Counted from the first letter of the stretch, positions 1-17,495 are shown. The stretch: DNA of 64,000 bases from an uncultured delta proteobacterium (GCA_963716275.1 CAVQTC010000005.1:40959-104958), one strand, 5' to 3'. Notes: generated by a model not told the origin, from the letters alone. Translations and numbers: made by a program.

Positions 1-2300
1 GGCCTTCGCGCTGCGGCTGCCGAGGATCGCCGGCAGCAGCAGCAGGTCCGCGAGCAGCGACGCGCCGATCGCGACGCCGGTCACGAAGCCGAAGCTCGCG
101 AGGCTCTTCCAGGGCACGAACACCAGCACCAGGAACCCGGCGGCGAGGGCGCCCGCCGAGGTGAACAGCGCGCGGCCGACCTCGCGCAACGAGGCGTCCA
201 TGGCCTGCTCCCGCGCGAGCCCTTGGCCTCGGAAGCGCTGGTAGCCCGTCAGCAGGTGCAGCGCCTCGTCCACGCCGAGCCCGAGCAGCACGGAGGCGAC
301 CATCGCCGTGCCGATATCGAGGGGGATGCCGAGGAAGCCCATCGCGCCCAGCGTGAGCAGCACGGGCCACGTGGTCGGGATCATCGCCAGCAGGGTGAGC
401 GGGATCGAGCGCAGGCAGACCCAGGTGAGCGCGGCGACGAGGGCGAGGGCGGCGCCGAAGCTCCCGATCTGGGTGTCGCGGATCTCGTCGATCATGTCGC
501 TCACCACGGCGAGCGGGCCCGTCACGATCGCGTGGGCGCCGGGAGGGAGCGCGGCGGCGACCTCGCTGCGCACGCGCTCCACCAGCGCGCGCAGCTCGTC
601 CTGCGGGAGCTTCTCGCCCTGGAAGGAGACGCGCAGCGCGGCGGGCTCGCCGCCCGTCGCCGGCGAGACGAAGAAGCCGACGAGGTCGCGCTGCTCGCCG
701 CGCATCAGCCGCAAGAGCTGGGCCGGCCGCTCTGGCAGCGCGCCTTGCCCCTCGAGCGCGAGGGGCTCGTGATGCACGAGCTCGTTCAGGTCGCGCATGG
801 GCTCGAGGATCGAGAGCGGATGGCTGAGGCCGCGCAGCGACCCGAGCCGCTCGATGCGCGCGAGCGAGGCCAGCGCCGGGAGCGAGTCGGGCTTCATGCC
901 CGGCGGGAGGAACACCGCCACCTCGAGCGTGTCGCCGCCGCGCAGCACGCGGGCCTCGCGCGCCCAGCGCACCACCTGGCTGCCCTCGCCGTAGAGCTGC
1001 TCGAAGCGCGCGTCGATCGAGAGCTCGCGCATGCCCACGAAGCTCAAGACCACCGAGGCGAGCGCCCCGAGCAGGATCGCGGCGCGGCCGCGACCCACGC
1101 GATCGGCGATCCCGTGCACCCAGCGCCGCCAGGTCGCCTGGGAGCGCGGCACCGAGATCCAGCGCGCCGGCAGGCGCACCAGCACGATCGGGAGCAGCAC
1201 GAAGGTCGCGCTGAACGCGGCCAGCACGCCGAAGGCGGAGATCCAGCCGAAGCGGACCAGGCTCTGGAGCCCGCTGTTGTAGAACGAGGCGAAGCCCGCG
1301 GCCGTCGAGAGCGCCGTGAACAAGCTCGGCCGCCCGACCTCGGCGAGCGTGCGCCCGAGCACGGCGGCGCGCGCCGCGCGGTCCCCCTGCTCCTCCTCGC
1401 TCGCGAGGTGCTCGGCGTAGGTCGAGATGACGTGGATGCCGTAGCAGACGCCGATCGTCAGCATGAGCGGTGGGCAGCACCTGGAAGAAGCTCGTGCGCG
1501 GCCAGCCGAGCCAGCCCTGGAGGCCGATCGCCCAGAGCAGCGCGAGGCCCGCGGTCGCGAGCGCGAGCAGCGCCGGCGCGACGGAGCGGAAGGCGAGCAG
1601 CAGGATCACGCCGACCAGCGCGACGATGCCGGGCACCAGACGCTGCACCTGCTGATCGAGCTCGCGCCCCGCGACCACGAACTCCACCGGCCCGCCCACG
1701 AGCGCGAACCGGAAGCCCTGCGCCTCGAAGCGCGCGAGCAGCGCGCGCGCCCCGTCCACGGCGCGCTCGGCCGTGGCGCCGGACGTATCGGTGAGCTGCA
1801 CGAGCACGGCGCCGGCGCGCCCGTCGGCCGAGATGATCTGGCCCACCCAGGCGGGATCGCGCAGCGCGCGTGGGGCGAGCTCGCGCAGGTCCGGCGGCGG
1901 GCTTTCCGTCCGGCGCGAGCTGGCGGGCGCGGGGCAGATCGAAGAGCTCCGGCGCGAGCAGCGGGCTCGTGGCCGGCCCCTCCACGTGGCGCACGCCGGG
2001 AAGCGCAGCGAGCGCGACCGCCACGTCGTGCGCCATCGCGAGCGCGCTCGCGTCGAACACGCTCCGGCACGGCGCCGGGGCCTCGCAGCGGAAGACGATC
2101 GCGAACGGCACGCCGCCGCCGAAGCGCGCGGCCACGGTCTCGAGCTCGCGCACCATGGGATGGTCGGCGCCCAGGAGCGCGCGGTAGCCGGTATCGACGC
2201 CCACGCGCAGGGCGCCCGCCGCGAGCGCGAGCGTGAACGCCGCCGCGATGAGCAGCACGACGAGCGGACGGCGCAGGCAGGCATAGAAGAGCTGCAGCAT
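1..2300 (-). pseudogene. RND-superfamily MMPL/HpnN-like lipid exporter; 3' end runs off the window; frame changes twice
   Basis: The N-terminus is in ORF 1458..2300 (MLQLFYACLRRPLVVLLIAAAFTLALAAG..., one TM then a periplasmic loop) and turns to Arg/Ala junk after about 130 aa. My reverse-complement reading continues the protein in the other two minus frames, with shifts near 1890 and 1475. The frame is open from about 1475 to base 1 and ends ...FVPWKSLASFGFVTGVAIGASLLADLLLLPAILGSRSAKA. The start at 2298-2300 lies 6 nt after the upstream stop. Confidence 0.7.
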
Positions 2301-2306
2301 CGAGCC

Positions 2307-3369
2307 TCAGCCCTCGCCCGCAGCACGGCGCAGCAGCGCTTCGAAGAGTCCTGGCGACCGCGCGAGGGCGGCGAAGGCTGCGCGCCGCAGCCGCGGGCGC
2401 TCGGTCGCGAGGCGCAGGAGCCGTGCGAACGCGCGATGCGCGCGCGAGAGGCGCCGCCAGGCGCTCTCGTACGCGCTGAGCGGCGCCTCCGCGGCGATCG
2501 TCTCGGCGAGCGCGTCGGCGCAGCGCAGCGCGAGCGTGATGCCCTCGCCGGTGACCGCATCGGTGTAGCCCGCCGCATCGCCCACGAGCGCGACGCGGCC
2601 CGCGAAGCGCCGCCGCGCGGCCTGCCAGAACGGGCCCGCGCCGCGCACCGCGCTCGCCGGCTCGGCGCCGGCCAGCTTGGCCGCGAGCTGCGGGAACTGC
2701 TCCACGAGCAGGGAGGCGTAGTCGCGCCCATCGGCTTCGTGGAGCACGGCGATGCCCACTTCGTCGGGCGCCACCGGGGTCACGTAGGCCTCCGCGCCGT
2801 CGCGGAAGGTAGACCTCCACGTAGGCGCTCCACGGCGCGAGCCGAAAGTGGCGGCGCAGACCGAAGCGGCGCGAGCGCACGGGCAGCGCGAGACCGGCGC
2901 GCGCGCGCACGCGGCTCCCGAGGCCGTCGGCCCCCACCAGGAAGCGCGCGCGGAGCTCGCCGCGCGAGGTGCGCGCGCACACGCGCCCCTCGCGCTCCGC
3001 GAAGTCGAGGAGCTCGCACTCGCTCTCCACCGCCACCCCCGCGCGCGCGGCGGCGGCGCGCAGCGCGGCGGAGAGGCGCGTGCGGCGCACGCCGAGGCCA
3101 GCGCCGCTCGCGAAATCGCCGGCGAGCTCGTGCGCGCCCTCGAGGAAGCGCACACCGCGGAAGGGCGCCCCGCCTAGCTCCTCCGCTCCCACGCCCAGGG
3201 CCGCGAGCGCGCGCACACCGGGCGGCATGATTCCTTCGCCGCACGCCTTGTCGAGCGGTCCGGCGCGCCGCTCGATCACGCGGGCGGAGACCCCGCGTCG
3301 CGCGAGCGCGATCGCGGTGGCGAGCCCCGCCGGCCCGGCGCCGACGACGAGGACGTCAACGTCGGACAC
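2307..3369 (-). pseudogene. FAD-dependent hydroxylase/oxidoreductase (FtpE/SrsC-like position); one frame disruption
   Basis: About 187 N-terminal aa are in ORF 1606..3369 (MSDVDVLVVGAGPAGLATAIALARRG, GxGxxG). The C-terminal part is in ORF 2307..3155 (GDAAGYTDAVTGEGI). The span is 1063 nt (3n+1), with the shift near 2808. Confidence 0.75.
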
Positions 3370-5092
3370 GCTGGAACGCGCGCCGGGAGCGCAGCAGCTC
3401 GAGGGCGAGGCGCGGGAGCGAGGCGGGCGGCGGCGCGGCGAGCGCGCCGGCGAGCTCGAGGCGAAGGGCCTCGGCGCGCCGGATCTTGCCGCTCGAGGTG
3501 CGCGGCAGCGTCCCCGGCGCCAGCACGCGCACGCGGCTCGGTCGCAGCCCGGTGCGCTCGAGCACGCGCCGCGTCAGGGCTTCAGCGAGCGCGGCGTCGC
3601 CGGGTCCGTCGTGCGTGCGCTCGACGAACAGCCAGAGCTGCTCGCCACTGCCGTCCTCGGCGAGCGCGCCGACCGCCGCGCTGCAGCCCGCGCGCACGCC
3701 AGCGAGCCCCTCGATCGCGTGCTCGATCTCGTGGGGCGCGTGATTGCGGCCGCGCAAGATGATCACGTCCTTGCTGCGCCCGAACAGGTGAAGCTCGCCC
3801 TCGAGCAGGAAGCCTGTGTCCCCGGTGTCGAGCCAGCCGTCGACCAGCACGCGCTTCGTCTCTTCGGGCAGGCCGTCGTAGCCCTGCATCAAGGAGGGGC
3901 CGCGCACGCGCACCCGGCCGAGCCGGCCCTCGGGAAGCGCGTCGCCGTGCGCGTCGACGATCTCCACGGCGAAGCCCGGGAGGGGCGGGCCGAGGGCCAC
4001 GATCGGCTGTCCCGCATCCAGCGCGCGCGCCTCGCCGCGCTCGGCGAGGGCGCGCGCGTCGAAGTGGCGCACCCGGAAGCGCTCGCGCAGCGCGCTGAAC
4101 GTGACGGCCAGCGCCGCCTCGGCGAGCCCGTAGACGGGCGTCAGCGCCTCGGGCGCGAGGCCGTAGGGCGCGAAGCGCGCGAGGAAGCGCGCGAGCACCG
4201 CGGGCGTCACCGGCTCGGCGCCGTTCATGGCGACGCGCCACGAGGAGAGATCGACGCCGGCGAGCTCCGCGTCTTCGATGCGCGCGGCGCAGAGCGCGTA
4301 GGCGAAGTTCGGCGCCGGGCTGATCGTCGCGCGTCGGCGCGAGATGGCGCGCAGCCAGAGCGCCGGCCGCGCAATGAACTGCTCCGGAGGGATCAGCACG
4401 AGGTCGCGCTCGTGGAAGAGCGTGGTGAACACGCCGCCCACCAGTCCCATGTCGTGATAGAGCGGGAGCCAGCTCACCGCCGAATGACGGAAGCCCGCAC
4501 TTTCGGGGTAGGCGGCGAGGATCGCGCCGCCGATCGCGTCCACGTTCGCGAGCACCTGGCGATGCGTGAGGGCGACCGGCCGCGGAGTCTGCGTCGTGCC
4601 CGACGAGAACTGGATGAAGGCGAGCGCGTCGGGGTCGGGGGCGCTCACGGCGAGCGGCGCCGCCGGGAGCTCCTCGAGGCGCGCGCAGCCGAGGGCGGGG
4701 CGCGCGCGCTCGATGGTGCGGCCGAGCACGCGCCGCGTGCGCGCGTCGGAGAGCACGAGCCGCACGCGCGCCGCCCCGAGCATCGCCGCCGTCCGCTCGT
4801 GGTATTCGGCCAGCCGGCCGAGGCGCACCGGCGGATAGAGCGGGACCGGGATGGCGCCGGCCGCGAGCGCGCCGAAGAAGCCGTCGAAGAACTCCGGCCC
4901 GGTCGCGGCGATCACGGCGACGCGGTCGCCCGGCGCCACGCCCCGCGCGACCAGCCCGCCGGCGGCGCGCTGCGCGCGCGCGAAGAGCTCGGCGTGGGGA
5001 AGCGCGAGCTCGCGCTCGCGCGCATCCAGGAAGCGGATGCAGCCGTCGCTCCGCGCCGCGCGCTCGAGGCGCGAGATCAACGTGTCAGGCAT
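3356..5092 (-). CDS. Fatty acyl-AMP ligase (FAAL) family adenylating enzyme
   Basis: Intact 578-aa ORF. Adenylation cores are present: FSSGTTQTPRPV, YGLAE, GRSKDVIILRGRNHAPHEIE and SSGKIRR. It lies next to a stand-alone ACP, and its start overlaps the ACP stop by 8 nt. Confidence 0.85.
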   Translation of the reverse strand: MPDTLISRLERAARSDGCIRFLDARERELALPHAELFARAQRAAGGLVARGVAPGDRVAVIAATGPEFFDGFFGALAAGAIPVPLYPPVRLGRLAEYHERTAAMLGAARVRLVLSDARTRRVLGRTIERARPALGCARLEELPAAPLAVSAPDPDALAFIQFSSGTTQTPRPVALTHRQVLANVDAIGGAILAAYPESAGFRHSAVSWLPLYHDMGLVGGVFTTLFHERDLVLIPPEQFIARPALWLRAISRRRATISPAPNFAYALCAARIEDAELAGVDLSSWRVAMNGAEPVTPAVLARFLARFAPYGLAPEALTPVYGLAEAALAVTFSALRERFRVRHFDARALAERGEARALDAGQPIVALGPPLPGFAVEIVDAHGDALPEGRLGRVRVRGPSLMQGYDGLPEETKRVLVDGWLDTGDTGFLLEGELHLFGRSKDVIILRGRNHAPHEIEHAIEGLAGVRAGCSAAVGALAEDGSGEQLWLFVERTHDGPGDAALAEALTRRVLERTGLRPSRVRVLAPGTLPRTSSGKIRRAEALRLELAGALAAPPPASLPRLALELLRSRRAFQRVRR

Positions 5093-5336
5093 ACGGCGGT
5101 CCGCTGGCCCGCGCCCGCTCGATCCACGCCACGAGCTCGCCGATCGTGGTGACCTCGCGGTCTTCCTCGGGCTCGAGGCACACGGAGAAGTGGTTCTCGA
5201 TCTCGACCACGAGATCGAGCTGCTCGATCGAGTCGAGGCCGAGATCGGCGACGAGCGCGGTCTCGGGCGTCAGCTCCCAATCGTTGTGGAGGCGATCCCG
5301 CACCAGGCGCTGCAGCTCGGCGAGCGTCTCGCTCAT
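5085..5336 (-). CDS. Stand-alone acyl carrier protein
   Basis: These are the last 83 aa of ORF 5085..5774, starting at ATG 5334-5336: MSETLAELQRLV...DLGLDSIEQLDLV, with the phosphopantetheine Ser in DSI. The upstream part of that ORF is Arg/Pro junk. Confidence 0.85.
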   Translation of the reverse strand: MSETLAELQRLVRDRLHNDWELTPETALVADLGLDSIEQLDLVVEIENHFSVCLEPEEDREVTTIGELVAWIERARASGPPYA

Positions 5337-5905
5337 CGCGCGCTCCGCAGGTGGGGCGCGAGCCGCGGGCGGTCGCCGAGCCGCGCCGCGTAGCCGCAGT
5401 GCTCCGCGAGCGCGCGCTCCTCCACGCGGATGCGCACGCGCAAGAGCGCGGCGTTCGCCACGCTGAAGACCAGCGCCGTCAGATAGGCGCCGTGGATCAG
5501 CGGCAGTGCGATGCCCTCGAGCACGACGGCCAGATAGTTCGGATGGCGAAGCCAGCGGTAAGGGCCGTCCACCACGACGGGCAGACCCGGCACGACGATC
5601 ACGCGCACGTTCCAGCGCGGCCCGAGCGTGGCGATCGCCCAGTAGCGAAGCGCCTGGGCGAGCCCGGCGAGGAGCGCCATCGGGATGCCCAGCGCCGGGA
5701 CGAAGGGCCGATCGAGCACCACGACTTCGAGGGCCGCGCCGGCCAGCAGGCCCACGTGGAGCGCCGCCATCCACGGGAAGTGGGAAGCGCCGACCTCGAT
5801 GCCGCCCTGCGCCAGGGCCGCGCGCGCGTTGCGGCGCGAGAGGCGCAGCTCGAACATCCGCTCGAGGCCCACCGCGGCGAGGAGCGCGAGGTACGCGCTC
5901 ACCAT
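5333..5905 (-). CDS. ICMT/PEMT-family integral-membrane methyltransferase
   Basis: These are the last 190 aa of ORF 5333..7768, starting at ATG 5903-5905. The protein has several hydrophobic spans and the RHPNYLAVVLEGIALPL signature. An ATGA overlap joins it to the ACP start. Confidence 0.8.
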   Translation of the reverse strand: MVSAYLALLAAVGLERMFELRLSRRNARAALAQGGIEVGASHFPWMAALHVGLLAGAALEVVVLDRPFVPALGIPMALLAGLAQALRYWAIATLGPRWNVRVIVVPGLPVVVDGPYRWLRHPNYLAVVLEGIALPLIHGAYLTALVFSVANAALLRVRIRVEERALAEHCGYAARLGDRPRLAPHLRSAR

Positions 5906-6943
5906 CGCAGCAGCACCAGCTCCGAGCAGAAGCCCGGGCCCATCGCGAGCAGGAGGCCGAGCGTGCCCGCCGGCGGGCGCTCGGCGAGCGCGTCGGCGAG
6001 CAGGAAGAGCACCGATGCGCTCGAGAGATTCCCGACGCGCGCGAGGTGCTCCCACGAGGCCGCCAGCGCGCTCGGCGGCAGCGAAAGCGCGCGCTCGACC
6101 GCGGTCAGCACCTTGGGCCCGCCGGGATGGCAGATGAAGCGCTCGATCTCGGCGAGCGCGACGCCCTGCTCCGCGAGGAACTTGTCCACGTCGGGCCGGA
6201 TCCCCGCGGCGAGGTTCGGCACGTCGGCGGAGAGGAGCACGCGGAAGCCGCCGTCGCCGACCTCCCAGCCCATCACGCGCTCGGTGTCCGGGTAGAGCAC
6301 CGAGCGGGTGGCGAGGATACGCGGTCCAGTGCCCGGCGCTCGGGCGCCGCGCAGGACGACCGCGGCGGCACCGTCGCCGAACAGCCCGCTCGCGATCACG
6401 TTCGCGACCGACACGTCCTCGCGCTGGAGCGTGAGACTGCAGAGCTCCACCGAGAAGAGCAGCGCGGTCTGGTCCGGGAACGCGCGCAGGTAGTCGGCTG
6501 CGCGTGCGAGCCCCGCGGCGCCCCCGACACAGCCCAGCCCGAAGAGGGGCGTGCGCTTCACGTCGGCGCGCAGGCCGATGCGGTTGGCGAGCCGGGCGTC
6601 CAGCGAAGGGGCGGCGATGCCGGTCACCGTGGTCGAGAAGACGTGGTCCACCTGGGCGGGCGTGAGATCGGCTTGCGCCAGCGCCTCGCCCGTCGCGCGC
6701 TCCGCGAGGAGCGAGGCCCTCGCGAATCCACGCGTCGTTGGCGTCCCCGAAGCCACGAAGCTTCTCGTACTCCTCGATCGGGAGCGCCAGATGACGCCCA
6801 CCGACGAGAACGTTGCGGTGAATCTCCTCCAAGCGGTGGGGATTGTGGAAGCGCCCCTTCCACAGCCGAGCGAGGGCGCCGAGCAGCTCGTCCTGGTCGT
6901 AGTAGTGAGCCGGCAGCGCGCAGGCTGCGGAGAGGATCTTCAT
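5899..6943 (-). pseudogene. Type III polyketide synthase; one frame disruption
   Basis: The N-terminal ~75 aa (MKILSAACALPAHYYDQDELLG...DANDAWIRE) are in the frame of ORF 5333..7768, and the rest is in ORF 5899..6801. The catalytic Cys (FGLGCVGGAAGL), His (FICHPGGPKV) and Asn (VGNLSSASV) are all present. The span is 1045 nt (3n+1), with the shift near 6715. Confidence 0.85.
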
Positions 6944-7707
6944 CGGCTCTCGATCTCCTTGGGCCCCAGGCGCGGCAGCCAGTAGGGGACGCTCGCCTGG
7001 TAGCGACGGTAGCCGTTGGGGTCGCGGGCGATGTAGCGGCGCTCCTTCAGGCGCGGACCGAGCCAGCAGTACGCGGTCCAGAGCGTCGCGAGGAGCAAGC
7101 GGTCTTGCGAGACGACGGGTCCCGTCCAGAGCGTGAGTGCGAACGCCAGATAGATGGGCTGGCGCGTGAAGGCGAAGAGGCCCCGCGTGGAAAAGGGGCG
7201 GTAGCGGGGGCGCCGACCGCGCGCCACGGCTCCCCAGCCCAGAAAGCCGAGCTGGAGATCGAGGCCCGCGTCGCGCATCGCCCACATCACGAGCGCCCAG
7301 GAGCCGCCGAAGGCGAGCTCGCTCACCAGGCGCCAGGCTCCCTCGAGTCGAAAGGGCGACGGATCGAGCGGCGACCACACCGCGAACGTGAGCGCGACCT
7401 GGAGCGACGCGAGGAGCACGAAGCTGGTCGTCGCGAGATCGCGACCGAGCGGCGTGCCTCCGAGCAGCCGCTGCCCACGGCGCGTGAGCAACGCGGAGTG
7501 CAGCAACGGAAACTGCAACCCCAGCGCCGCGTCGGCGGCCCAGGCCGGGATGCCTCCGAGCCCGCCGGCCCCGAAGCGCAGTCCCTCGTGGAGGCTCGCG
7601 ATCATCGCGGCCACCGCCAGCGCGAAGGCGCCGTGGCACGCGATCCCGAGGCCGACCGCGAGTCCGCGCTGGGCAGTCGAGTATCCCGCATGGGCGTTCG
7701 CCCCCAT
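6940..7707 (-). CDS. Multi-pass membrane protein, methyltransferase-fold (NnrU/DUF1295/ICMT-like)
   Basis: These are the last 255 aa of ORF 6940..8328, starting at ATG 7705-7707. The protein is hydrophobic throughout and carries the motif FTRQPIYLAFALTLW. An ATGA overlap joins it to the PKS start. Confidence 0.65.
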   Translation of the reverse strand: MGANAHAGYSTAQRGLAVGLGIACHGAFALAVAAMIASLHEGLRFGAGGLGGIPAWAADAALGLQFPLLHSALLTRRGQRLLGGTPLGRDLATTSFVLLASLQVALTFAVWSPLDPSPFRLEGAWRLVSELAFGGSWALVMWAMRDAGLDLQLGFLGWGAVARGRRPRYRPFSTRGLFAFTRQPIYLAFALTLWTGPVVSQDRLLLATLWTAYCWLGPRLKERRYIARDPNGYRRYQASVPYWLPRLGPKEIESR

Positions 7708-7724
7708 GTCCGACACGCGCGCGA

Positions 7725-8344
7725 CTAGGAGCGCGCCGTCGTTGCGACGCCGGCAGCGGGCGCCGCATCCAGCTTCACGTCGACCTCGACGCGCACGCGA
7801 TCCTCGACGCGGATGAAGCCCATCACCGTCGGCGCCTCGAGGCCGAAGTCGGCGAGCGAGACGTCGAAGGCCGCTCGGAAGCTCGCGTGCTTGCCGGGCT
7901 CCTCCTGCCAGCGCGAGACCAGCGGCACGAGGCGCCGCTCGCGCTCGCCGATGCGCAGCGTGAAGGCGAGCGAGTCCGCCGAGGCTGCGGTGTGCGCGGC
8001 GGCTCGCAGCGCGTCGGGTGCGACGTGCTCGAACTGGGCGACGATGCGCGGGTGGTGCTCGGCGTCGAACATCAGGCGCATGCGGTTGTCGCGCGCCGAG
8101 ATGCCCGTCTTCATCTGCGCCACCGCCACATCGACGCGCGCGCGGTAGGCGCCATCGCGGCCGGGGGCTCGACGGCGAAAGCCGCGCAGGGCGCCTCGCC
8201 CTCGAAGTCGTGCATCGTGGAGGAGGCGAAGAAGCGCACGGAGCAGCTGCCCGAGACGGAGATGGCGTCCGCGCGGGCGCGCGCTCCGAGCGCCAACATC
8301 CCCAACAAGAGCGCGGCGCCAGCAACAACTCGAGCGCGCGACAT
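7725..8344 (-). pseudogene. Secreted YceI-like lipid/polyisoprenoid-binding protein; frame disrupted
   Basis: The signal peptide MSRARVVAGAALLLGMLALGARARA and ...SSTMHDFEGE are in the tail of ORF 8111..8959. The rest (MKTGISARDNRMRLMFDAEHHPRIVAQF...FIRVEDRVRVEVDVKL) is in ORF 7725..8129. The span is 620 nt (3n+2), with the shift(s) between 8130 and 8165. Confidence 0.6.
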
Positions 8345-8506
8345 GACCACCTCCGAGCGTCTCCCCACAGAAACCGCTCCCAACCCTAGGGGTTCCCGGG
8401 GTATTTGCCCGCGTGAACGAATTGGAATGTTTGTCCCATCTCGCCCCGGGAGCGCGCGCGAGCCCGAGCCGAGGTAACCTGCCGCACTTCCCTGCAGGAG
8501 CGACCC

Positions 8507-9276
8507 ATGAGCGGCGTCGGCGAGCTCTTCGACTTGAGCGGAAAGGTGGCGGTCGTCACCGGCGGGAGCCGCGGGCTCGGGCGCGAGATGGTGCTGGCCT
8601 TCGCGCGCGCTGGCGCGGACGTGGTGATCGCGAGCCGCAAGCTCGAGAGCTGCGAGCGGCTCGCGGAGGAGGTGCGCAAAGAAACCGGGCGGCGCGCGCT
8701 CCCGGTCGCGTGCCACGTGGGAGACTGGGCGCAGAACGAGCGGCTCGCCGCGGTCGCTTACGAGCAGTTCGGCCACGTCGACGTGCTCGTGAACAACGCC
8801 GGCATGTCGCCGCTCTACGACCACGTCGTGAACGTGAGCGAGGCGCTCTACGACAAGGTGCTCGACGTCAATCTGAAGGGCCCCTTCCGGCTGACGGCGC
8901 TGATCGGCACGCAAGATGGTCGAGGCCGGCCGCGGCTCGATCATCTTCGTCTCGAGCACGCGGCTCGCTCCACCCGCGCGGGAGCATCATCACCTACGCC
9001 GCCGCGAAGGCGGGCGTGAACGCGATGACCACGGGCTTCGCCCACCACTTCGGTCCGCGCGTGCGCGTGAACTGCATCCTGCCCGGGCCGTTCCTGACGG
9101 ACATCTCGAAGGCCTGGGATCTCGACGCCTTCGAGAAGCGCGCGCAGACCGACATCTTCCTGAAGCGCGGCGGCCAGCCCAACGAGATCGTCGGCGCCGC
9201 GCTCTACTTCGCGAGCGACGCCTCGAGCTTCACGACCGGCGCGCACCTCGAGGTGTGCGGCGGCGGGATCGGGTGA
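8507..9276 (+). pseudogene. SDR-family oxidoreductase; two frame disruptions
   Basis: VVTGGSRGLG and NNAG are in ORF 8507..9019. MVEAGRGSIIFVSS is in ORF 8916..9497. YAAAKAG and the C-terminus (...ALYFASDASSFTTGAHLEVCGGGIG) are in ORF 8413..9276. The shifts lie near 8915 and 8958-8975, and the span is 3n+2. Confidence 0.75.
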
Positions 9277-9919
9277 GCGGCACGACGACTGCGAGCGCGA
9301 GCAGCCCCGTGAGCGCGGGCTCCGGCGCGTCGAACATCTCGTCGAGCATCAGGTTGTCGAGCCCGATGAACGCTCCACCCGGGGGCAATGCCGATCCCAC
9401 GATGGTGATCGTAGGTGCCACGCTGTCGGCAGTGAAGATGAATCCATACGTGGCCCATTGCACGCCCGAGCCGGCAGAGTCGTGTGTCAGGGTGTGACTC
9501 ACGCCTCCGATCGTCACGAGCACGGAGATCGGCCCGCCGCAGGTCGCACCGGGCACGCAGCTCGCGATGTTCGAGACGCCCAGATCGGCGCTGAAGGTGT
9601 ACTGCTGGCCGATCGTCAGTGAGGAGAGCTGCTGGGAGATCCCCTTGCCGAGCGTGTTCCCGTAGCCGGCGATGTCGAGGAAGTTGGAGCCTTCGGAGGG
9701 CGTGATCTGGTACGAATTGGGCGCGTGGCAGACGGCGATCTCGCCTCCCACCGGTGCGAACAGCGTGAGCGAGGTCGACGCCGGCGTGAGCTGGCTGCAG
9801 CCATCGCCGGCGAAGGTCCCCGTGAACGTCTCGAAGCTCGGGTTGAAGATCAGATGAGCCTGGGCTTCCGATCCCAGCCCGACCGCCAGCAGCGAGACCA
9901 ACGCGAACTGGATGCGCAT
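9230..9919 (-). CDS. Secreted PEP-CTERM-anchored protein with beta-sandwich (DUF642-like) domain
   Basis: These are the last 229 aa of ORF 9230..10936, starting at ATG 9917-9919. They contain a signal peptide (MRIQFALVSLLAVGLGSEAQA) and a C-terminal sorting signal (APEPALTGLLALAVVVPLTRSRRR: PEP motif, TM span, Arg cluster). Confidence 0.7.
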   Translation of the reverse strand: MRIQFALVSLLAVGLGSEAQAHLIFNPSFETFTGTFAGDGCSQLTPASTSLTLFAPVGGEIAVCHAPNSYQITPSEGSNFLDIAGYGNTLGKGISQQLSSLTIGQQYTFSADLGVSNIASCVPGATCGGPISVLVTIGGVSHTLTHDSAGSGVQWATYGFIFTADSVAPTITIVGSALPPGGAFIGLDNLMLDEMFDAPEPALTGLLALAVVVPLTRSRRRTPRGARRS

Positions 9920-10032
9920 GACGCCTCCGCAGCGACAAGAGTAGAGTGGCCGCGGCGGCCGATCGGTGGCAGCACATTGCGCTGATCTGTGACGGCCGAC
10001 TGGCCGAACGTCGTAAACCTGCGTTCGGTCGC

Positions 10033-11223
10033 CTATTCCTCGGTCTCCGCGGGCTCGTCCACGAGCGGCAGCCCGGCCATGCGCCGGAAGGTGCGGTGCA
10101 TGTTGATCAGCGAGGGCTCGTTGGCGCCAAAGGTGGTGTGCGTGCGCATGCCCGCGTTGAAGTTGCGCTGCACGTTCTGGCTGACCCAGTAGTCCTCTTT
10201 GTCGACGACCGAGTAGATGAACTGGAAGTGCTCGCGACCGTAGGCGCGGCGCGCCTCGCTGTCGGCGGGCTGGCGCAGGTAGAGCGAGTAGCGCGTCACG
10301 TGCTCGCCCACGCTCGCGCCCGGGAAGAGCCGGAACAGCTCGACCTCGTCGGGCGAGATCAAGAGCGAGATGTTGGGGAAGATGTAGTACACGAAGGCAA
10401 AGTACTGGAGCGGGTCGCCCCACTCGGACTCCGGCTTGTTGGGGAGCTCTCGGACCTGCTTGTTGGGGAAGCCCACGCGATGGTGCTCGCCGTGCTTCCC
10501 GTAGCGGTCGTAGGTCATGCAGTTGGTGAGCGAGAACTGGCCGACCGTATCCGGATGCAGCGGCCCGAAGTGATATCCCTCGCAGAACGTGTCGAGGGCG
10601 AGCTTCCAGTTCGACTCGAGCTGCCAGTCCCCGCTCTGGATGTGCGTGGCTCTCCCGAGTCCCCAGGTTCCGAGCTCTCGGCCGAGCTCGCCCAGGTGCT
10701 GTTCGACGGAGAGCGGCACGTTCGGATCGGGCGACACGTAGACGAAGCCGTACTTCTCCTCGCAGGGCAGCTCGACCAGGTTGTACTGCGAGCGGTCGAC
10801 GCGCCCGAAGCTCTCGGCCTTGAAGAGACCCGTGAGCTTGCCCTCGAAGTCGTAGGACCAGGCGTGATACGGGCACACGAAGCCGCGCTTCAAGCTGCCG
10901 CAGCCCTCGACCAGGCGCGCCGAGCGGTGCGCGCACTGGTTCACGAACGCGCGCACGCGCGCGTCCTTGCCGCGCACGATCGCGATCGGGATGCCGAGGT
11001 CGTCGTGCGTGCGGAAGTCGCCGGGTCTCGCGAGGTCCGAGCTGAAGCAGACGAGCTGCGGGTAGTGGCGGAAGATGCGCTCCTTCTCGAGCGCGAACTG
11101 CTCCGGGTCGGTGTAGGTGGCGATCGGGTTGCGCCGCGCGCCGTCCGGGTGGATCGCCGTCGTGCCCGTGGTCGCGTAGTGGACCATGCGGCGCAGCACC
11201 TCGAGCAGCGACTCTCGGTCCAT
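10033..11223 (-). CDS. Rieske [2Fe-2S] non-heme-iron oxygenase, alpha subunit (alpha-only, KshA/phthalate-type size)
   Basis: The Rieske motif is CAHRSARL...CPYHAWSY and the iron motif is NWKLALDTFCEGYHFGPLH. I prefer ATG 11223 (MDRESLL), which is preceded by GGGAGGG, over the GTG at 11247 used by the track. Confidence 0.85.
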   Translation of the reverse strand: MDRESLLEVLRRMVHYATTGTTAIHPDGARRNPIATYTDPEQFALEKERIFRHYPQLVCFSSDLARPGDFRTHDDLGIPIAIVRGKDARVRAFVNQCAHRSARLVEGCGSLKRGFVCPYHAWSYDFEGKLTGLFKAESFGRVDRSQYNLVELPCEEKYGFVYVSPDPNVPLSVEQHLGELGRELGTWGLGRATHIQSGDWQLESNWKLALDTFCEGYHFGPLHPDTVGQFSLTNCMTYDRYGKHGEHHRVGFPNKQVRELPNKPESEWGDPLQYFAFVYYIFPNISLLISPDEVELFRLFPGASVGEHVTRYSLYLRQPADSEARRAYGREHFQFIYSVVDKEDYWVSQNVQRNFNAGMRTHTTFGANEPSLINMHRTFRRMAGLPLVDEPAETEE

Positions 11224-11340
11224 GGTGGCGGTCCCTCCCGCCTCCACTTTATCACGTTTAAATTGGGGAGTTCGTTCACGAAATACGAGGGACCGGAAGC
11301 GGACGCCTCCGGACGGCCTGGGGTCCTCGGCGGCGGCGGC

Positions 11341-12099
11341 TCAGACGGCGGTCAGCCCCGCGTCGATGGCGATCTCGCTGCCGTTCAGGTGGCGGGATTC
11401 GTCGCTCGCGAGGAAGAGCGCGAGGTTGGCGACGTCCTCGGGCTGGCCGCCCGGGCCGCCGGCGAGCTTCGCCATCAGCGCCTGGGTGGTGGGGCCAGCG
11501 CCGTCGAGGGCGCCCGGGAGGCCCCGCACCATGGGCGTGTCCATGCCGCCCGGGTGGATGGAGTTGCAGCGCACCGGGTAGCCGAGCTGGAGGCAGTGCG
11601 CGGCGACGGTCTTGGTGAGGAGCCGCACGGCGCCCTTGCTCGCGCTGTAGGCCGCGAAGGGCGGCGTGCCGACCAGGCCCGCCGTGGAGGAGAGGTTCAC
11701 GATCGAGCCGCCGCGCTCCTTCATCGCGAGCAGCGCGAACTTGCAGCCGAGGAACACGCCCTCGACGTTCACCGCGAGCACGCGGCGCAGCTCCTCGAGC
11801 GTCGTGTCCTCGATCGAGCGCGCCACCACGATGCCGGCGTTGTTCACGAGCACCGAGAGCGGCCCGAGCTCGCGCTGGGCGTCCGCGATCACGCGCTGCC
11901 AGTCGTCCTCGCTGCGCACGTCGAGGCGCGCCGCGCGCGCGCTCGCGCCGAGCTCGGCCGCGAGCTCCTTCGCGCCGGGCTCGTTCACGTCGGCGCACAC
12001 CACCCGCGCGCCCTCGCGCGCGAGCGCTCGCGCGGTGGCCCGGCCCAGGCCCGACGCCGCTCCCGTCACGATCGCGACCTTGCCGCTCACGCGTCCCAT
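11341..12099 (-). CDS. SDR-family oxidoreductase
   Basis: These are the last 252 aa of ORF 11341..13254, starting at ATG 12097-12099. They contain VTGAASGLG, NNAG and YSASKGA. Confidence 0.85.
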   Translation of the reverse strand: MGRVSGKVAIVTGAASGLGRATARALAREGARVVCADVNEPGAKELAAELGASARAARLDVRSEDDWQRVIADAQRELGPLSVLVNNAGIVVARSIEDTTLEELRRVLAVNVEGVFLGCKFALLAMKERGGSIVNLSSTAGLVGTPPFAAYSASKGAVRLLTKTVAAHCLQLGYPVRCNSIHPGGMDTPMVRGLPGALDGAGPTTQALMAKLAGGPGGQPEDVANLALFLASDESRHLNGSEIAIDAGLTAV

Positions 12100-12162
12100 C
12101 GGCCGCGCAGGGTAGGGGGCCGGTGAGCGCGCCCGCCAGAGGCTCGGGCATACTGCGGCGCC

Positions 12163-13323
12163 ATGGTTCACCGCCCCGCGCGAGGATCGGGCCCGCGACG
12201 CCACGGGGGCGAGGTGCCGCAGCTCTCCGGCATCCCGCCCGCGACGCTCTCCGCCGAGGTCTACCGCGACCCGGCGCGCTACGAGCTCGAGCGCGAGCGC
12301 GTGCTGCGGCGGAGCTGGCTGATCGCCGGGCGCAGCGACGAGATCCCGCGGGCCGGCGACCACCTGCTCTACGAGGGCCACGGCGAGACGGTCGTGGTCG
12401 TGCGCCAGCCCGGCGGGAGCGCGCGGGCCTTCCACAACGTCTGCCAGCACCGCGGCGCGCGCATCGCGCGGGCGTGCGGCCGCGGCGCCAGCAAGTTCGT
12501 GTGCCCCTGGCACGGCTGGACCTACGACACGGACGGTCGCCTGGCCGGCGTCCCCGATCGCCGCGATTTCGCGGCCTCCCAGCTCGCGGGCCTGCGCGCA
12601 CCGGCGGTCGCCGTCGAGGAGTGGGCGGGCTGGATCTGGATCTTCCTGACGGCCGACGAGGCCCCGCCGCTCTCCGCATGGCTGGGCGAGATGCAGACCG
12701 AGCTCGCCGCTTACCGCATGGAGGAGATGTTCGTCTTCGAGAGAGCGGTCTACGACGTGCCTTGCAACTACAAGGCGATCGTCGACGGCTTCAATGAGGC
12801 CTACCACATCGCCGAGCTCCACAAGGTGCCCGGCGAGGTGGTGCGCGCGAGCCGCGAGACTTCTTACGCAGCGCTCGGCCGCCACAGCCTGATGATCGTG
12901 CCGCTCGACCCGTCCACGCTCGCGCAGCTCCAGGCGACGGGCGACCACCAAGGCACCGTCACCTGCCACTACGCGCTCTTCCCGAACGCGGTGTTCAACA
13001 ACCTGCCCGAGCACCTGCAGCTCTTCCAGCCCATTCCGACCGGGCCCCACAGCTCGCGCTTCGTGTGCTGGGAGCTCCAGTACAAGGACGGCGACGCCGC
13101 CTACCGCAAGTACGTCGAGACCGCCTGGGGCTTCCTCAAGCAGGTGGTCGAGCAGGACGTGTTCGTCTTCAACGAGCTCTCCGCCACGCGCGAGTCGATG
13201 GGCTACATCGCGAATCGCTTCAGCGAGCGCGAGTGCAAGCCGACCGCTTATCACGAGGAGATGGCGCGCCTGCTCGGCTCCGGGGCCCCGCAGCGCATTG
13301 CGAAGGGAGACCCGCTCCGATGA
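12163..13323 (+). CDS. Rieske [2Fe-2S] non-heme-iron oxygenase, alpha subunit (second paralog)
   Basis: Intact 386-aa ORF with CQHRGARI...CPWHGWTY and NYKAIVDGFNEAYHIAELH. Its stop overlaps the next start (ATGA at 13320-13323). Confidence 0.85.
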   Translation: MVHRPARGSGPRRHGGEVPQLSGIPPATLSAEVYRDPARYELERERVLRRSWLIAGRSDEIPRAGDHLLYEGHGETVVVVRQPGGSARAFHNVCQHRGARIARACGRGASKFVCPWHGWTYDTDGRLAGVPDRRDFAASQLAGLRAPAVAVEEWAGWIWIFLTADEAPPLSAWLGEMQTELAAYRMEEMFVFERAVYDVPCNYKAIVDGFNEAYHIAELHKVPGEVVRASRETSYAALGRHSLMIVPLDPSTLAQLQATGDHQGTVTCHYALFPNAVFNNLPEHLQLFQPIPTGPHSSRFVCWELQYKDGDAAYRKYVETAWGFLKQVVEQDVFVFNELSATRESMGYIANRFSERECKPTAYHEEMARLLGSGAPQRIAKGDPLR

Positions 13324-14960
13324 CGATGCAGCGCACGCCCTTGATCCTCTCGCGCATCCTGGAGCGCGGGGCCCGCGTCGCGCCCAACGAGCAGGTCGTC
13401 ACCAAATTCCCCAACGGCTTGCACCGCCAGACCCTCGCGCAGACGCGCGCCCGCGCCGCCCAGCTCGCCAACGCCCTCGCGGCCGATGGCGTTCGCGGCG
13501 GCGAGCGCGTGGCGAGCCTGCTCTGGAACAACCACCGCCACCTGGAGATGTATCAGGCCCTCCCGAGCATGGGCTGCGTGCTCCACACGCTGAACCTCCG
13601 TCTCGCGGTGGGCGAGCTCCAGTACATCATCAACCACGCCGAGGACGCGGTGATCGTGGTCGACCAGAGCCTGCTCGCGACCCTCGAGCAGCTCGCCGGC
13701 AAGCTTCCCAGCGTGCGGCGCGTGATCGTCGCCGCCGAGCCGGGCGCCGGGCCCTGGCAGTCGAGCCTGCCGGGCGCGGTGGACTACGAGCAGTTCATCG
13801 CCTCGCAGTCGCGCGAGATCGAGTGGCCCGAGCTCGACGAGAACGCGCCGATGGGCCTTTGCTACACGAGCGGCACGACCGGCGATCCCAAGGGCGTGCT
13901 GTACACGCACCGCTCCACGTACTTGCACACGCTGGCGCAGTGCATGACGGACTCGATGAATCTCTCGTCCCAGGACGCGCTGCTCCAGATCGTGCCGATG
14001 TTCCACGCGATGGGCTGGGGGGCGCCCTTCAGCACGCTCACGCTCGGCGCAAAGGTCGTGCTGCCCCACCGCTTCATGGATCCGAAGAGCCTGGTCGAGC
14101 TGATGGCGGGCGAGGAGATCACGATCTCGCTGGGCGTCCCCACCATCTGGCAGGGCGTCCGGGCGCTGCTCGAGCAGTGCCCCGGCCAGTACGACCTGCG
14201 CGCTCTGACGCGCGTCACTTGCGGCGGGTCGGCGCCGCCGGTCTCCTTGATCCGCTGGTATTGGGACACGCTGGGCGTCGAGATGATCCAGGGCTGGGGC
14301 ATGACCGAGACCAACCCGCTCGTCACCGTCTCGCGCCGCGTCGCGAAGCGCGGCCAGCGCAGAGCCCTCGCCGAGGAGCATCTCGCCAATCAGGCGAAGG
14401 CCGGCCAGGTGATCCCCGGCATCGACGTCGCGATCATGGACGAGCAGTGGAACCCGCTCCCCCACGACGGCAAGTCGGTGGGCGAGGTGGTGGTGCGCGG
14501 CCCCTGGATCTGCTCGGCGTACTACAAGAACCCGCAGCCCACGAAGTTCCACGACGGCTGGCTCGTGACGGGCGACGTCGGCATGATCGATCCCGAGGAG
14601 TACCTGATCATCACGGACCGCTCGAAGGACCTGATCAAGTCCGGGGGCGAGTGGATCAGCTCGGTGGATCTCGAGAACCACATCGTCGGCCTCGCCGGCG
14701 TGGCCCAGGCCGCGGTGGTGGGGGTGGCGCACCCGAAGTGGGACGAGCGGCCCGTGGCGCTCGTGGTGCGCGCAACCGGGAGCGCACTCAGCGCCGCCCA
14801 GGTGCTCGCCCACTGCGAGGGCCGCTTCGCCAAGTGGCAGCTCCCGGACGACGTGCTGTTCCGGGACGCGATTCCCCTCACCTCGACTGGCAAGATCGAC
14901 AAGAAGGCGATTCGCGCGGCCTTGGCCGTCGAGCACTACCGGCTCCCCGACCAGCGCTGA
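13320..14960 (+). CDS. Acyl-CoA synthetase (AMP-forming, long/medium-chain type)
   Basis: Starts at ATG 13320 (MTMQRTPLI) inside ORF 13065..14960. Motifs are CYTSGTTGDPKGVLYTH, GWGMTET, ITDRSKDLIKSGGEWISS and TSTGKIDKK. Confidence 0.88.
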   Translation: MTMQRTPLILSRILERGARVAPNEQVVTKFPNGLHRQTLAQTRARAAQLANALAADGVRGGERVASLLWNNHRHLEMYQALPSMGCVLHTLNLRLAVGELQYIINHAEDAVIVVDQSLLATLEQLAGKLPSVRRVIVAAEPGAGPWQSSLPGAVDYEQFIASQSREIEWPELDENAPMGLCYTSGTTGDPKGVLYTHRSTYLHTLAQCMTDSMNLSSQDALLQIVPMFHAMGWGAPFSTLTLGAKVVLPHRFMDPKSLVELMAGEEITISLGVPTIWQGVRALLEQCPGQYDLRALTRVTCGGSAPPVSLIRWYWDTLGVEMIQGWGMTETNPLVTVSRRVAKRGQRRALAEEHLANQAKAGQVIPGIDVAIMDEQWNPLPHDGKSVGEVVVRGPWICSAYYKNPQPTKFHDGWLVTGDVGMIDPEEYLIITDRSKDLIKSGGEWISSVDLENHIVGLAGVAQAAVVGVAHPKWDERPVALVVRATGSALSAAQVLAHCEGRFAKWQLPDDVLFRDAIPLTSTGKIDKKAIRAALAVEHYRLPDQR

Positions 14961-15014
14961 GCCGCCAAGTCGCCCCCCCGTCCTGCCGATGCACGACGCG
15001 AAGGAGGGAGAGCC

Positions 15015-15467
15015 ATGCGCAGCCTTCGCCGCGAGCTCGCGCTCGCGCTGCTCGTCGCACTCGGCGTCGAGTCGAGCGCGTGCGGGACGCTGATCTATCC
15101 GGAGCGCCGCGGACAGCGCTCGGGCCGCATCGACCCCGGCGTGGCGGTGATGGATGGCATCGGGCTCTTGCTCTTCATCATCCCGGGCATGGTCGCCTTC
15201 GCCATCGACTTCTCGACCGGCGCCATCTACCTGCCGAGCGGCCGCCGCGGGGAGGTGGAGCGCGTGCCCTTCGCTGGCGACGATCTCGCGGGCGCCCTCG
15301 CGGCCGTCGAGGCGCGCACGGGCGTCGACGTGGCCGAGCACCACGGCGATGCCTGGGTCGTGCCCCTCGAGGACGCGGACGCCGCACGCGGCGCGCTCGC
15401 CGCCTTGGCCTCGGATCCCACGGCCGCGCTGCCCGCCGGCGCCCGTCGCTGGGAGAAGGTCCGCTAG
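15015..15467 (+). CDS. Putative lipoprotein, unknown function
   Basis: 150-aa ORF with a signal peptide and a lipobox-like LGVESSAC, followed by one hydrophobic hairpin (GIGLLLFIIPGMVAFAIDF). Confidence 0.55.
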   Translation: MRSLRRELALALLVALGVESSACGTLIYPERRGQRSGRIDPGVAVMDGIGLLLFIIPGMVAFAIDFSTGAIYLPSGRRGEVERVPFAGDDLAGALAAVEARTGVDVAEHHGDAWVVPLEDADAARGALAALASDPTAALPAGARRWEKVR

Positions 15468-15518
15468 CGGCGGGGGCGTGCTCGCCAGCGATATGCTGCG
15501 CCTCCCCAGGGAGGCGCC

Positions 15519-16734
15519 TTGCCCGACCATCCGACGAATCCGAGCGTCCGGCTGCTCGATCGCTTCTTCTATCTCGACCCGCACCCGCACTTCCGCTGGC
15601 TGCGCGAGCACGCCCCGGTCTACTGGGACGCGAGCTCCGACGGAGGCATCTGGGGCGTCGCCCGCTACGACGACGTGCTCGCGGTCTCGCGCCAGCCGGA
15701 GCTCTTCTGCTCGGGCCAGAGCTCGCGGCCCGAGCGCGGCTCCTGGATCCCGTCGATGATCAACCTCGACGATCCGCTCCACAAGCGCCGCCGCAACCTC
15801 GTGAACCGCGGCTTCACGCCTCGCCGCGTCGAGGCCCACGAGCCGATGCTGCGCAAGCTGACGGGCGAGCTGATCGACGCGGTCGCCCCGCGCGGCGAGT
15901 GCGACTTCGTGCGCGACATCGCGCGCTGGATCCCGATGGTCGTGATCGGCGACATGCTCGGCGTGGAGCCGCGAGGATCGCGAGCGGCTCCTGGTCTGGT
16001 CGGACGAGATGCTGGGCGGCGGCGAGGCGCAGCACATCGCCGACGAGGAGGCGCGGCGCGCGCACCAGCGCGTGATCGCGACCGAGTACATGACCTACGC
16101 CGCCCGGGTGATCGCGGATCGGCGCGCGCGGCCGCGCGACGATCTGATGAGCATCCTCGCCCACGGCGAGGTCGACGGCGATCGCATGACGGACGAGGAG
16201 ATCCTGCAGGAGAGTCTGCTGATCCTGATCGGCGGCGACGAGACCACGCGCCACGTGATGACGGGCGGCCTGCTCGAGCTCCTGCGCCGCCCCGCGCAGA
16301 AGCGGCGCCTGCTCGAGAACCCGGGCCTCGTCCCGAGCGCCGTCGAGGAGATGCTGCGCTGGGTGAGCCCGATCCAGAACATGAATCGCACCGCTACGCA
16401 GGACACCCTGCTGCGCGGCCAGCAGATCCGCGCGGGCGACCGCCTGCTGCTGCTCTACCCCTCGGCGAACCGCGACCCCGCAGCCTTCCCAGAGCCCGAC
16501 GAGTTCGACGTGGCGCGCGAGCCCAATCGCCACGTCGCCTTCGGCGGCTACGGCACCCACCACTGCCTCGGCGCGAGCCTCGCGCGGCTCGAGCTGCGCG
16601 TGCTCCTCGAGGAGCTCTTGCGCCGTCTCCCGGATCTCGAGCTGGCCGAGGGCGAGCTGCCCGTGCGGCCCGGGAACTTCATCGTGGGCCTCGAGCGGAT
16701 GAGGCTGCGCTTCTCACCCGGGGGCGCCTCGTGA
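15519..16734 (+). pseudogene. Cytochrome P450; one frame disruption; TTG start
   Basis: The N-terminal 151 aa are in ORF 15519..17495 and the rest is in ORF 16009..16734. Motifs are the I-helix GGDETT, EMLRW, and the heme loop FGGYGTHHCLGASLA. The span is 1216 nt (3n+1), with the shift near 15972. Confidence 0.82.
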
Positions 16735-17495
16735 GCGCGCTCGAGACCGTCGCCTATCGCGTGGACGGACAGGTCGCGCGCATCCAGATGAACCGCCCCA
16801 ACAAGCGCAACGCGCTCGATCACCAGCTGCTCGACGACCTCGCGGCGGCCTTCGACGCCGCGGAGGCGGACCCCGCCGTGCGCGTCGCCGTGCTCTCGGG
16901 AGCCGGCCCCTCGTTCTGCGCGGGCTACGACCTCGCGGGCAGCTACTACACGAGCGCGCCCGAGGAAGGCTGGACCGTGCCCAGCGCGCTGCTCCGGCTG
17001 CGCGACATCGAGGCCCGCTACCAGCGCATCTGGAACTTCCCGAAGCCGACGATCGCGCGCGTGCACGGCCACGCGCTCGCGGGCGGCTGCTATCTGCAGC
17101 TGCTCTGTGACATCTCGGTCGCCGCGCTCGACGCCAAGCTCGGCCACCCCGCCGTGAAGATGGGCGGCGTGAGCAGCATGCCGCTCTGGCAGGTGATCCT
17201 CGGCGTGCGCGCCGCCCGCTACCTGCTCCTCACCGGTCGCATCGTGGACGGCGCCGAAGCCGAGCGCATGGGCCTGGTGACGCTGGCCGTGCCCGAGGCC
17301 GACCTCGACCGCGTCGTCGACGCAGTCGCGGCCGACGTCTGCGCGGTGCCGCCCGAGGGCCAGCTCCACCACAAGGAGGCCCTCAACACTGCCCTCGAGA
17401 TCCAGGGGGTCGGCGCGCTCTTCCGTTACCACGGCCAGATGAACGCGCTGGGCCGGCTCGGCCGGGCCTCGCCTTACCGGCCTCGCCCGAGCTGA
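16731..17495 (+). CDS. Enoyl-CoA hydratase/isomerase (crotonase) family
   Basis: These are the last 254 aa of ORF 15519..17495, starting at GTG 16731 (GTGA overlap with the P450 stop). They contain SFCAGYDL and GHALAGG. Confidence 0.8.
   Translation: MSALETVAYRVDGQVARIQMNRPNKRNALDHQLLDDLAAAFDAAEADPAVRVAVLSGAGPSFCAGYDLAGSYYTSAPEEGWTVPSALLRLRDIEARYQRIWNFPKPTIARVHGHALAGGCYLQLLCDISVAALDAKLGHPAVKMGGVSSMPLWQVILGVRAARYLLLTGRIVDGAEAERMGLVTLAVPEADLDRVVDAVAADVCAVPPEGQLHHKEALNTALEIQGVGALFRYHGQMNALGRLGRASPYRPRPS

Follow-up and report, generated by a model that had tools for sequence, protein, structure and literature searches.

A putative ftp-type operon for a long-chain phenolic or quinone lipid, with three added genes, in an uncultured Myxococcota bacterium

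The stretch of DNA analysed here (hereafter the window) comprises 64,000 nucleotides (nt) of an uncultured Myxococcota bacterium (CAVQTC010000005.1:40959-104958), and a putative operon for a long-chain phenolic or quinone lipid, centred on a type III polyketide synthase (PKS), lies at its beginning. The window has a GC content of about 74%, and a mechanical list of open reading frames (ORFs) is swamped by spurious frames at such high GC; the genes were called by third-position GC (GC3 frame plot), and protein families were assigned by Pfam and NCBIfam profile searches. As seen in the GC3 frame plot, the minus strand is coding almost without a break from position 8344 down to position 1. Eight genes are present there, all on the minus strand, in the order YceI-family lipocalin, polytopic membrane protein (termed MP260 here), type III PKS, ICMT-family methyltransferase, acyl carrier protein (ACP), fatty acyl-AMP ligase (FAAL), monooxygenase dependent on flavin adenine dinucleotide (FAD) and MMPL transporter. 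A first-pass annotation of the same DNA had spoken of nine genes, one more than can be counted. Its gene identities from YceI to MMPL on the minus strand are borne out, with Pfam support for the families and weaker superfamily evidence in the case of MP260.

The junctions within the operon are tight. The six junctions quoted by the first-pass annotation agree exactly with the ORF coordinates, that is, ATGA overlaps at 6940-6943 and 5333-5336, overlaps of 7 nt at 5899-5905, 8 nt at 5085-5092 and 14 nt at 3356-3369, and a gap of 6 nt at 2301-2306. The coupling had been claimed for the whole row of genes, and it holds for these six junctions but not for the one between YceI and MP260, which is a 17-nt gap and not an overlap when MP260 starts at ATG 7707, the start of the gene call P0121 in the public collection; an alternative GTG start is found at 7725. 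The overlap lengths of 7, 4, 8 and 14 nt are likewise found in an intact orthologous locus (L001; the loci compared carry the prefix L), and therefore they are a conserved property instead of a product of chance. The gene order is also identical in the intact orthologous loci.

The five genes from the PKS to the monooxygenase form the core of the operon. The type III PKS (5899..6943, minus strand) contains both the N- and C-terminal Chal_sti_synt domains, and its frame is broken near 6708. The repaired protein has 347 amino acids (aa), which is the exact length of its close relatives. A search with it yields thousands of relatives in all, and it is 77% identical over 100% of its length to 347-aa proteins of uncultured Myxococcota. 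The Cys/His/Asn triad, which had been read in the sequence before, is located at C138, H272 and N305 of the repaired protein and is invariant in the PKS alignment (A1). The best sequence match in PDB is Pks11 of Mycobacterium tuberculosis (E 7e-100), and the closest solved relatives also include CylI, a resorcinol synthase that uses acyl-ACP.

The next gene (5333..5905, minus strand) encodes a 190-aa membrane methyltransferase of the ICMT family (PF04140, E 1.4e-27), which occupies the SrsB/FtpB position and shares 53-60% identity with its counterparts in the Corallococcus, Actinacidiphila and Mycobacterium clusters. It is followed by a stand-alone ACP of 83 aa (5085..5336, minus strand), which is matched by Pfam PP-binding (E 6e-09) as well as NCBIfam ACP models and carries the phosphopantetheine site LGLDSIEQ. 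The FAAL gene (3356..5092, minus strand; 578 aa) is intact and contains an AMP-binding domain. Its best NCBIfam model is NF006624, ‘fatty acyl-AMP ligase’ (E 3.7e-134), with a score of 448 bits that lies below the cut-off of 600. Among its 18 top-scoring sequence matches in PDB, most carry an annotation as FAAL or FAAL-type loading domain, led by the Escherichia coli structure 3pbk (E 5.9e-91) and followed by FadD23, FadD32 and FadD28, while the first CoA-ligase-type matches appear at about 1e-30, about 60 orders of magnitude weaker. Over residues 335-375, the segment that we take to be the FAAL-specific insertion, the protein aligns with 3pbk without loss of collinearity. Judged by these matches, the adenylating enzyme is predicted to be a FAAL rather than an acyl-CoA synthetase. 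The FAD-dependent monooxygenase (2307..3369, minus strand), located in the SrsC/FtpE position, has about 353 aa after repair of a frame break near 2809. It contains FAD_binding_3 (E 9e-23) and matches the Ubi-hydroxylase and geranylgeranyl-reductase superfamily, with 66-68% identity to its counterparts in L001, L005 and L006, and 39-48% to the ftp- and srs-type hydroxylases.

The order of these five genes invites comparison with the ftpABCDE operon of Myxococcus xanthus (Hayashi et al. 2011, cited in PMC10896814 and PMC5707447), which we take to run PKS (FtpA), methyltransferase, ACP, FAAL (FtpD) and hydroxylase, and for which loci of Corallococcus, Archangium and Pyxidicoccus served as stand-ins in all comparisons. 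The core of the window is collinear with these ftp-type loci, as the first-pass annotation had proposed for the ftp operon itself: the same five families occur in the same order on one strand. The identities to Corallococcus coralloides are 64% for the PKS, 53% for the methyltransferase, 35% for the ACP, 49% for the FAAL and 48% for the hydroxylase, and the values for the Myxococcaceae stand-ins overall are 61-64% (PKS), 53-58% (methyltransferase), 49% (FAAL) and 48% (hydroxylase). What the operon in the window adds is YceI and MP260 upstream and MMPL downstream, none of which occurs in the Myxococcaceae ftp-type loci, so that the earlier view of these three genes as lying outside the known ftp-type systems stands. 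The suggested likeness to srsABC is also real, since homologous clusters of PKS, methyltransferase and hydroxylase exist in Actinacidiphila and Mycobacterium. The relative order is the same as in srsABC of Streptomyces griseus and the PKS10 operon of Mycobacterium smegmatis, with identities of 57% (PKS), 57-60% (methyltransferase) and 39-45% (hydroxylase) in L081 and L045. The chemistry expected for both would also be shared, from an alkylresorcinol through its methyl ether to an alkylquinone (PMC10896814, PMC5916927). However, operons of this type have three genes, without ACP, FAAL, YceI, MMPL or a second methyltransferase, and their starter is presumably an acyl-CoA or the ACP of the fatty acid synthase. 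The operon in the window is not of the srs type, as an ACP and a FAAL, both missing from L045 and L081, lie between its methyltransferase and its hydroxylase.

The YceI-family lipocalin (7725..8344, minus strand) is the first of the three added genes. Its frame is broken near 8155 by the loss of one nt, which places the N-terminal third in another frame, and the C-terminal piece matches PF04264 with 35.4 bits against a cut-off of 23.7 (E 1.7e-08). At the N-terminus, a Sec signal peptide can be recognised in the translation (MSRARVVAGAALLLGMLALGARARA/DA), and the protein is 50% identical to the YceI proteins of L001, L003 and L006; a sequence search against PDB gave no match for it. In these features it resembles the YceI/BcnA lipocalins, which have the same domain and a signal peptide, although the genes with which known members are associated encode cytochrome b561 and not a PKS (PMC9113575). 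The MMPL/RND-type transporter (1..2300, minus strand) has about 765 aa and two frame breaks, near 1897 and 1474. PF03176 is found on two of its pieces, with 52 and 82 bits, and it is 71-72% identical over 97% of its length to the MMPL proteins of L001, L005 and L006, where the intact proteins have 767-782 aa; comparison with the orthologues indicates that the last few residues of its C-terminus lie beyond window position 1.

MP260 (6940..7707, minus strand) is a polytopic membrane protein of 255 aa and a putative second methyltransferase. It has no Pfam match above threshold (DUF1295 is weak, E 0.045). It matches the NCBIfam model NF045656 (MddA) with E 2.3e-15, and its 56.6 bits lie far from the equivalog cut-off of 270; on this score, MP260 would be only a distant relative of the MddA methanethiol S-methyltransferase. 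Its relatives are named as the Ste14/ICMT family in the source annotations. The AlphaFold (AF2) model has a predicted local distance difference test (pLDDT) value of 92.8, and the top three Foldseek matches in PDB, at E 0.04-0.3 with none below 0.01, are 7c83, 4a2n and 5v7p, that is, a bacterial steroid 5α-reductase, Ma-ICMT and a eukaryotic ICMT. A profile search against PDB returned 4a2n only, at a non-significant E of 0.3. The earlier suggestion of a second membrane protein with a methyltransferase fold agrees with the placement of MP260 in the ICMT/MddA/SRD5A superfamily, and we regard it as a distant member of the ICMT/PEMT/SRD5A superfamily, for which a methyltransferase activity is likeliest and a reductase-type activity could be the alternative. 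The motif FTRQPIYLAF of MP260 and LRHPNYLAV of the operon's own ICMT have R-x-P-x-Y-L-A in common and nothing more. MP260 was also considered as a recent paralogue of that ICMT, and this was rejected, since BLASTP shows resemblance at the level of the motif only.

The surroundings of the core were then compared among close relatives. The first round of synteny profiles yielded a spurious ICMT and a doubled ACP from out-of-frame ORFs, and domain-trimmed seeds were used instead. Nine loci of the close clade were recovered, with the duplicates L002 and L004 counted together with L001 and L003. In L001, L006 and L088 the core five are preceded by YceI and followed by MMPL. L005 has MP260, the core five and MMPL; L086 has the same with a second RND pump, and L087 has the core five, MMPL and a second RND pump. 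L003 carries YceI, MP260 and the core on a contig that ends before the position of MMPL, while in L007 YceI and MP260 are found downstream of the core five, and L089 has PKS, methyltransferase and hydroxylase only. Consequently, MMPL lies directly after the monooxygenase in all six close relatives in which the region is visible (L001, L005, L006, L086, L087 and L088) and is the most constant of the three added genes. YceI, adjacent in L001, L003, L006, L007 and L088, and MP260, adjacent in L003, L005, L007, L083 and L086, come and go. The three genes had been predicted to be co-conserved in relatives, and they do recur beside the core in the clade to which the window belongs, but in varying combinations and not as a fixed set.

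A wider survey, with one genome per species, covered the 80 best loci of about 600 homologous type III PKS loci in GTDB species genomes. The cultured Myxococcaceae (Corallococcus, Archangium and Pyxidicoccus, with Hyalangium similar) show the bare five-gene ftp-type order, and within 10 kb of the core of C. coralloides nothing like YceI, MMPL or MP260 was found. Actinacidiphila and Mycobacterium show the three-gene srs/PKS10-type order. In several Thermoanaerobaculia and Acidobacteriota, the five-gene order is accompanied by YceI, and at least 17 Acidobacteriota have a compact cluster of PKS, FAD monooxygenase and YceI (L029, L036, L040, L048, L053, L055, L058, L059, L063, L070, L071, L076, L077, L078, L080, L084 and L085), and between the PKS and monooxygenase genes of these clusters no methyltransferase of the ICMT type was detected. 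Altogether, YceI is adjacent to the PKS cluster in 24 of the 80 species loci (about 30%), mainly in Acidobacteriota. In a neighbour-joining (NJ) tree of the PKSs, computed without bootstraps and with L089 left out, the PKS of the window falls in a clade in which nearly all loci carry ACP and FAAL, and this clade is sister to that of the Myxococcaceae ftp-type loci; the assumption of a FAAL/ACP-primed PKS passes this phylogenetic check. Neither the characterised systems nor the examined loci of cultured Myxococcaceae have the extension by YceI, an MddA-like protein and MMPL. Within a clade of uncultured Myxococcota the extended arrangement is conserved, and the association with YceI goes further, into the Acidobacteriota.

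Taken together, we consider it probable that the locus is an ftp-type operon for a long-chain phenolic or quinone lipid with three added genes, that it is functional, and that its frame breaks are errors of the consensus. Its product would most likely be a methylated long-chain phenolic or quinone lipid. The acyl-ACP on which FtpA acts is supplied by FtpD, a FAAL (PMC5707447), the products of SrsA and FtpA are oxidised to alkylquinones (PMC10896814), and PKS10 together with O-methylation and oxidation gives polyketide quinones (PMC5916927). By homology to such characterised systems, the FAAL would adenylate a fatty acid and load it onto the stand-alone ACP, and the type III PKS may extend this acyl-ACP starter with malonyl units to an alkylresorcylic acid or alkylresorcinol. 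The ICMT-family methyltransferase would O-methylate the PKS product, and the FAD monooxygenase may hydroxylate the ring to yield a methoxy-alkylhydroquinone or alkylbenzoquinone. In the case of SrsB, O-methylation is accompanied by decarboxylation. The roles of the added genes are suggested by their context: MP260 probably carries out an additional methylation, extraction of the lipid from the inner membrane is probably the task of the MMPL/RND transporter, and the YceI lipocalin probably binds it in the periplasm. Such a hand-off to YceI is plausible because YceI lipocalins hold long-chain phenols and quinones with the general shape of the expected product, usually octaprenylphenol or ubiquinone-8 (PMC9113575).

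The logic of the proposed pathway has a parallel in mycobacteria, where export modules of FadD (FAAL), Pks and MmpL are found, such as FadD26/Pps/MmpL7 and FadD32/Pks13/MmpL3. In both cases a fatty acid activated by a FAAL is passed to a PKS, and an MMPL protein encoded alongside moves the lipid. However, the mycobacterial modules have type I PKSs and serve the mycobacterial envelope, while the operon in the window has a type III PKS, belongs to a diderm and includes a periplasmic lipocalin. No paper joining YceI with a type III PKS was found in the literature searched; for MMPL with type III PKS and alkylresorcinol, a pan-genome study of Mycobacterium avium was the only result, and judging by title and abstract it is not about an operon of this kind.

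Then, could the product remain in the membrane as a respiratory polyketide quinone, as in M. smegmatis, with YceI and MMPL serving its distribution or redox recycling? PKS10-type clusters do make respiratory polyketide quinones (PMC5916927), and for YceI proteins, which bind ubiquinone-8, a partnership with a cytochrome b561 has been proposed (PMC9113575). Furthermore, in L086 (1-6021) and L087 (1-6927), which come from Myxococcota MAGs, Alternative-Complex-III-type genes (NrfD, ActD) and cytochrome c genes lie immediately upstream of the operon. However, this adjacency is found in two loci only, which have the same surrounding gene order and may come from related genomes, and there is no respiratory-gene adjacency in the window or in L001, L003, L005 and L088. 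An RND/MMPL exporter also fits export better than retention in the membrane. Consequently, a membrane-resident respiratory quinone is possible as the product, although we regard it as unlikely.

Whether the operon is functional depends on the meaning of its frame breaks. The GC3 frame switches, together with DNA alignment to four orthologous loci, reveal five single-base indels in four of the eight genes: an extra C in the PKS, an extra C in the monooxygenase and two extra Cs in MMPL at the positions given above, as well as the nt missing from YceI relative to L001, L003 and L006. The first-pass annotation had called the operon frame-repairable, which is correct, but it underplayed the extent of the damage, as half of the genes are not intact. 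The public gene call for the PKS (P0008, on a contig of 169,761 bp) is shortened accordingly to 285 aa, and therefore the breaks are present in the deposited sequence. Could they be real mutations in a decaying cluster of pseudogenes, so that the pathway is no longer made in the organism? The number of broken genes, the short PKS call and the local density, with five breaks in 8.3 kb compared with about 16 in the other 55.7 kb, could be taken in this sense. However, after repair all eight proteins are free of stop codons and large deletions and align over their full length with 50-77% identity to intact orthologues, and the other indels relative to the orthologues are nearly all multiples of three. 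The exceptions, two gaps of 4 columns each close to the 3' end of YceI, look like alignment noise.

Moreover, similar breaks are found across the window. When same-strand frame switches with an upstream frame open for more than 100 nt were listed, about 16 further frameshift candidates were obtained in unrelated genes of the remaining 55.7 kb, between 8491 and 64000, for example at 8913, 8966, 15968, 17852, 18991, 20656, 28430, 28668, 28994, 45280, 47836, 52966, 53410, 62633 and 63734. The split of a TonB-dependent receptor is confirmed by Pfam, with the β-barrel profile covered from 50 to 278 and then from 284 to 436 across the break; splits of a P450, a Baeyer-Villiger monooxygenase and an amidohydrolase are visible in the translations, with partial support by Pfam. 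Of the 21 frame breaks in the window, 18 are of the +1 type, and such a one-sided bias is, in our judgement, expected from technical error more than from natural mutation. The enrichment of breaks in the operon is not significant (p=0.13). Programmed frameshifting was considered as well and rejected, since the breaks affect genes without relation to each other, at positions that do not correspond, and the frames of the orthologues are uninterrupted. Based on the above, a pseudogene cluster is quite improbable, and the five breaks of the operon are most likely consensus errors of the assembly, a reading favoured because the breaks are pervasive, one-sided in direction and otherwise harmless. 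If the breaks are assembly errors, the operon would be functional in the organism. The pattern suggests a contig with systematic insertion errors, at about one frameshift per 3 kb, and any inference on gene content or pseudogenes from it needs frame repair first.

It is very unlikely that YceI, MP260 and MMPL are mere neighbours of a standard five-gene ftp operon without a role in the pathway, since their absence from the Myxococcaceae loci, their varying presence between relatives and the lack of a published link in the literature searched are to be set against a shared strand and junctions that nowhere exceed 17 nt (including the ATGA overlap of MP260 and PKS and the 6-nt gap before MMPL), the constant place of MMPL in the six close relatives, the adjacency of YceI across phyla, and at least nine MP260 homologues that, judged by matching lengths of the longest contigs, appear to lie on the same contig as a PKS homologue.

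Several points nevertheless weigh against the functional, extended ftp-type operon that we favour. The density of frame breaks in it is nominally about twice that in the rest of the window. The added genes occur in varying combinations, and all three together are shown for the window only, with L003 ending early. In L089, whose PKS is 73% identical, the cluster (7001-9709) is without ACP and FAAL, and the supply of the starter unit seems to be exchangeable within the close clade. The comparison with ftp was made with the Corallococcus and Archangium stand-ins and not with the sequences of FtpA-E of M. xanthus. In addition, MP260 falls far below the cut-off for MddA and its fold matches are not significant; it could be a reductase-type protein or act on something else.

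The phenolic lipids and polyketide quinones that type III PKSs produce affect antibiotic tolerance, the envelopes of cysts and spores, and respiration at low oxygen, and we know of no established route by which such lipids leave the cytoplasmic membrane. Synthesis coupled to an RND/MMPL pump and a periplasmic lipocalin, as predicted for this operon, would be a concrete and testable export route, and it would also provide a candidate class of natural ligands for a subset of YceI proteins. More tentatively, YceI and MMPL might form a dedicated handling route for the non-isoprenoid quinones and phenolic lipids of type III PKSs that is widespread in Acidobacteriota and Myxococcota, and that in some lineages may feed the respiratory chain; we put this forward as a possibility with more doubt than confidence. 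If true, it would give the poorly understood YceI proteins a native ligand class and a genetic partner besides cytochrome b561. The link between YceI and type III PKS extends to many Acidobacteriota, which are abundant in soil and hard to cultivate. The architecture as a whole is sensible rather than startling, and the link to YceI is the one element in it that opens a testable question.

Upstream of the operon, an intergenic region (8345..8506), presumed to contain the promoter, separates it from a divergent SDR gene (8507-9270, plus strand), which shows two frame switches within 55 nt. A divergent arrangement of SDR (-) and YceI (+) is also present in L003 and L088. A scan of 1-9000 for promoters and terminators gave no credible signal at the 5' end of the operon and no sigma-70-like site in 8345..8506, and the Rfam scan of the whole window (1-64000) found no family at the gathering score.

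Further upstream, the minus strand at 9271-9945 encodes a secreted protein with a C-terminal PEP-CTERM-like sorting motif (…PEPALTGLLALAVVVPLT…). It is followed at 9946-19214 by a catabolic-looking block, read from the translations as SDR, two Rieske-type oxygenases, an acyl-CoA synthetase, a P450 and a Baeyer-Villiger monooxygenase, in which the C-terminal piece of the P450 alone is confirmed by Pfam. Flanks similar to this block, with SDR, Rieske, AMP-binding and enoyl-CoA hydratase genes, are located next to the operon in L003 and L088.

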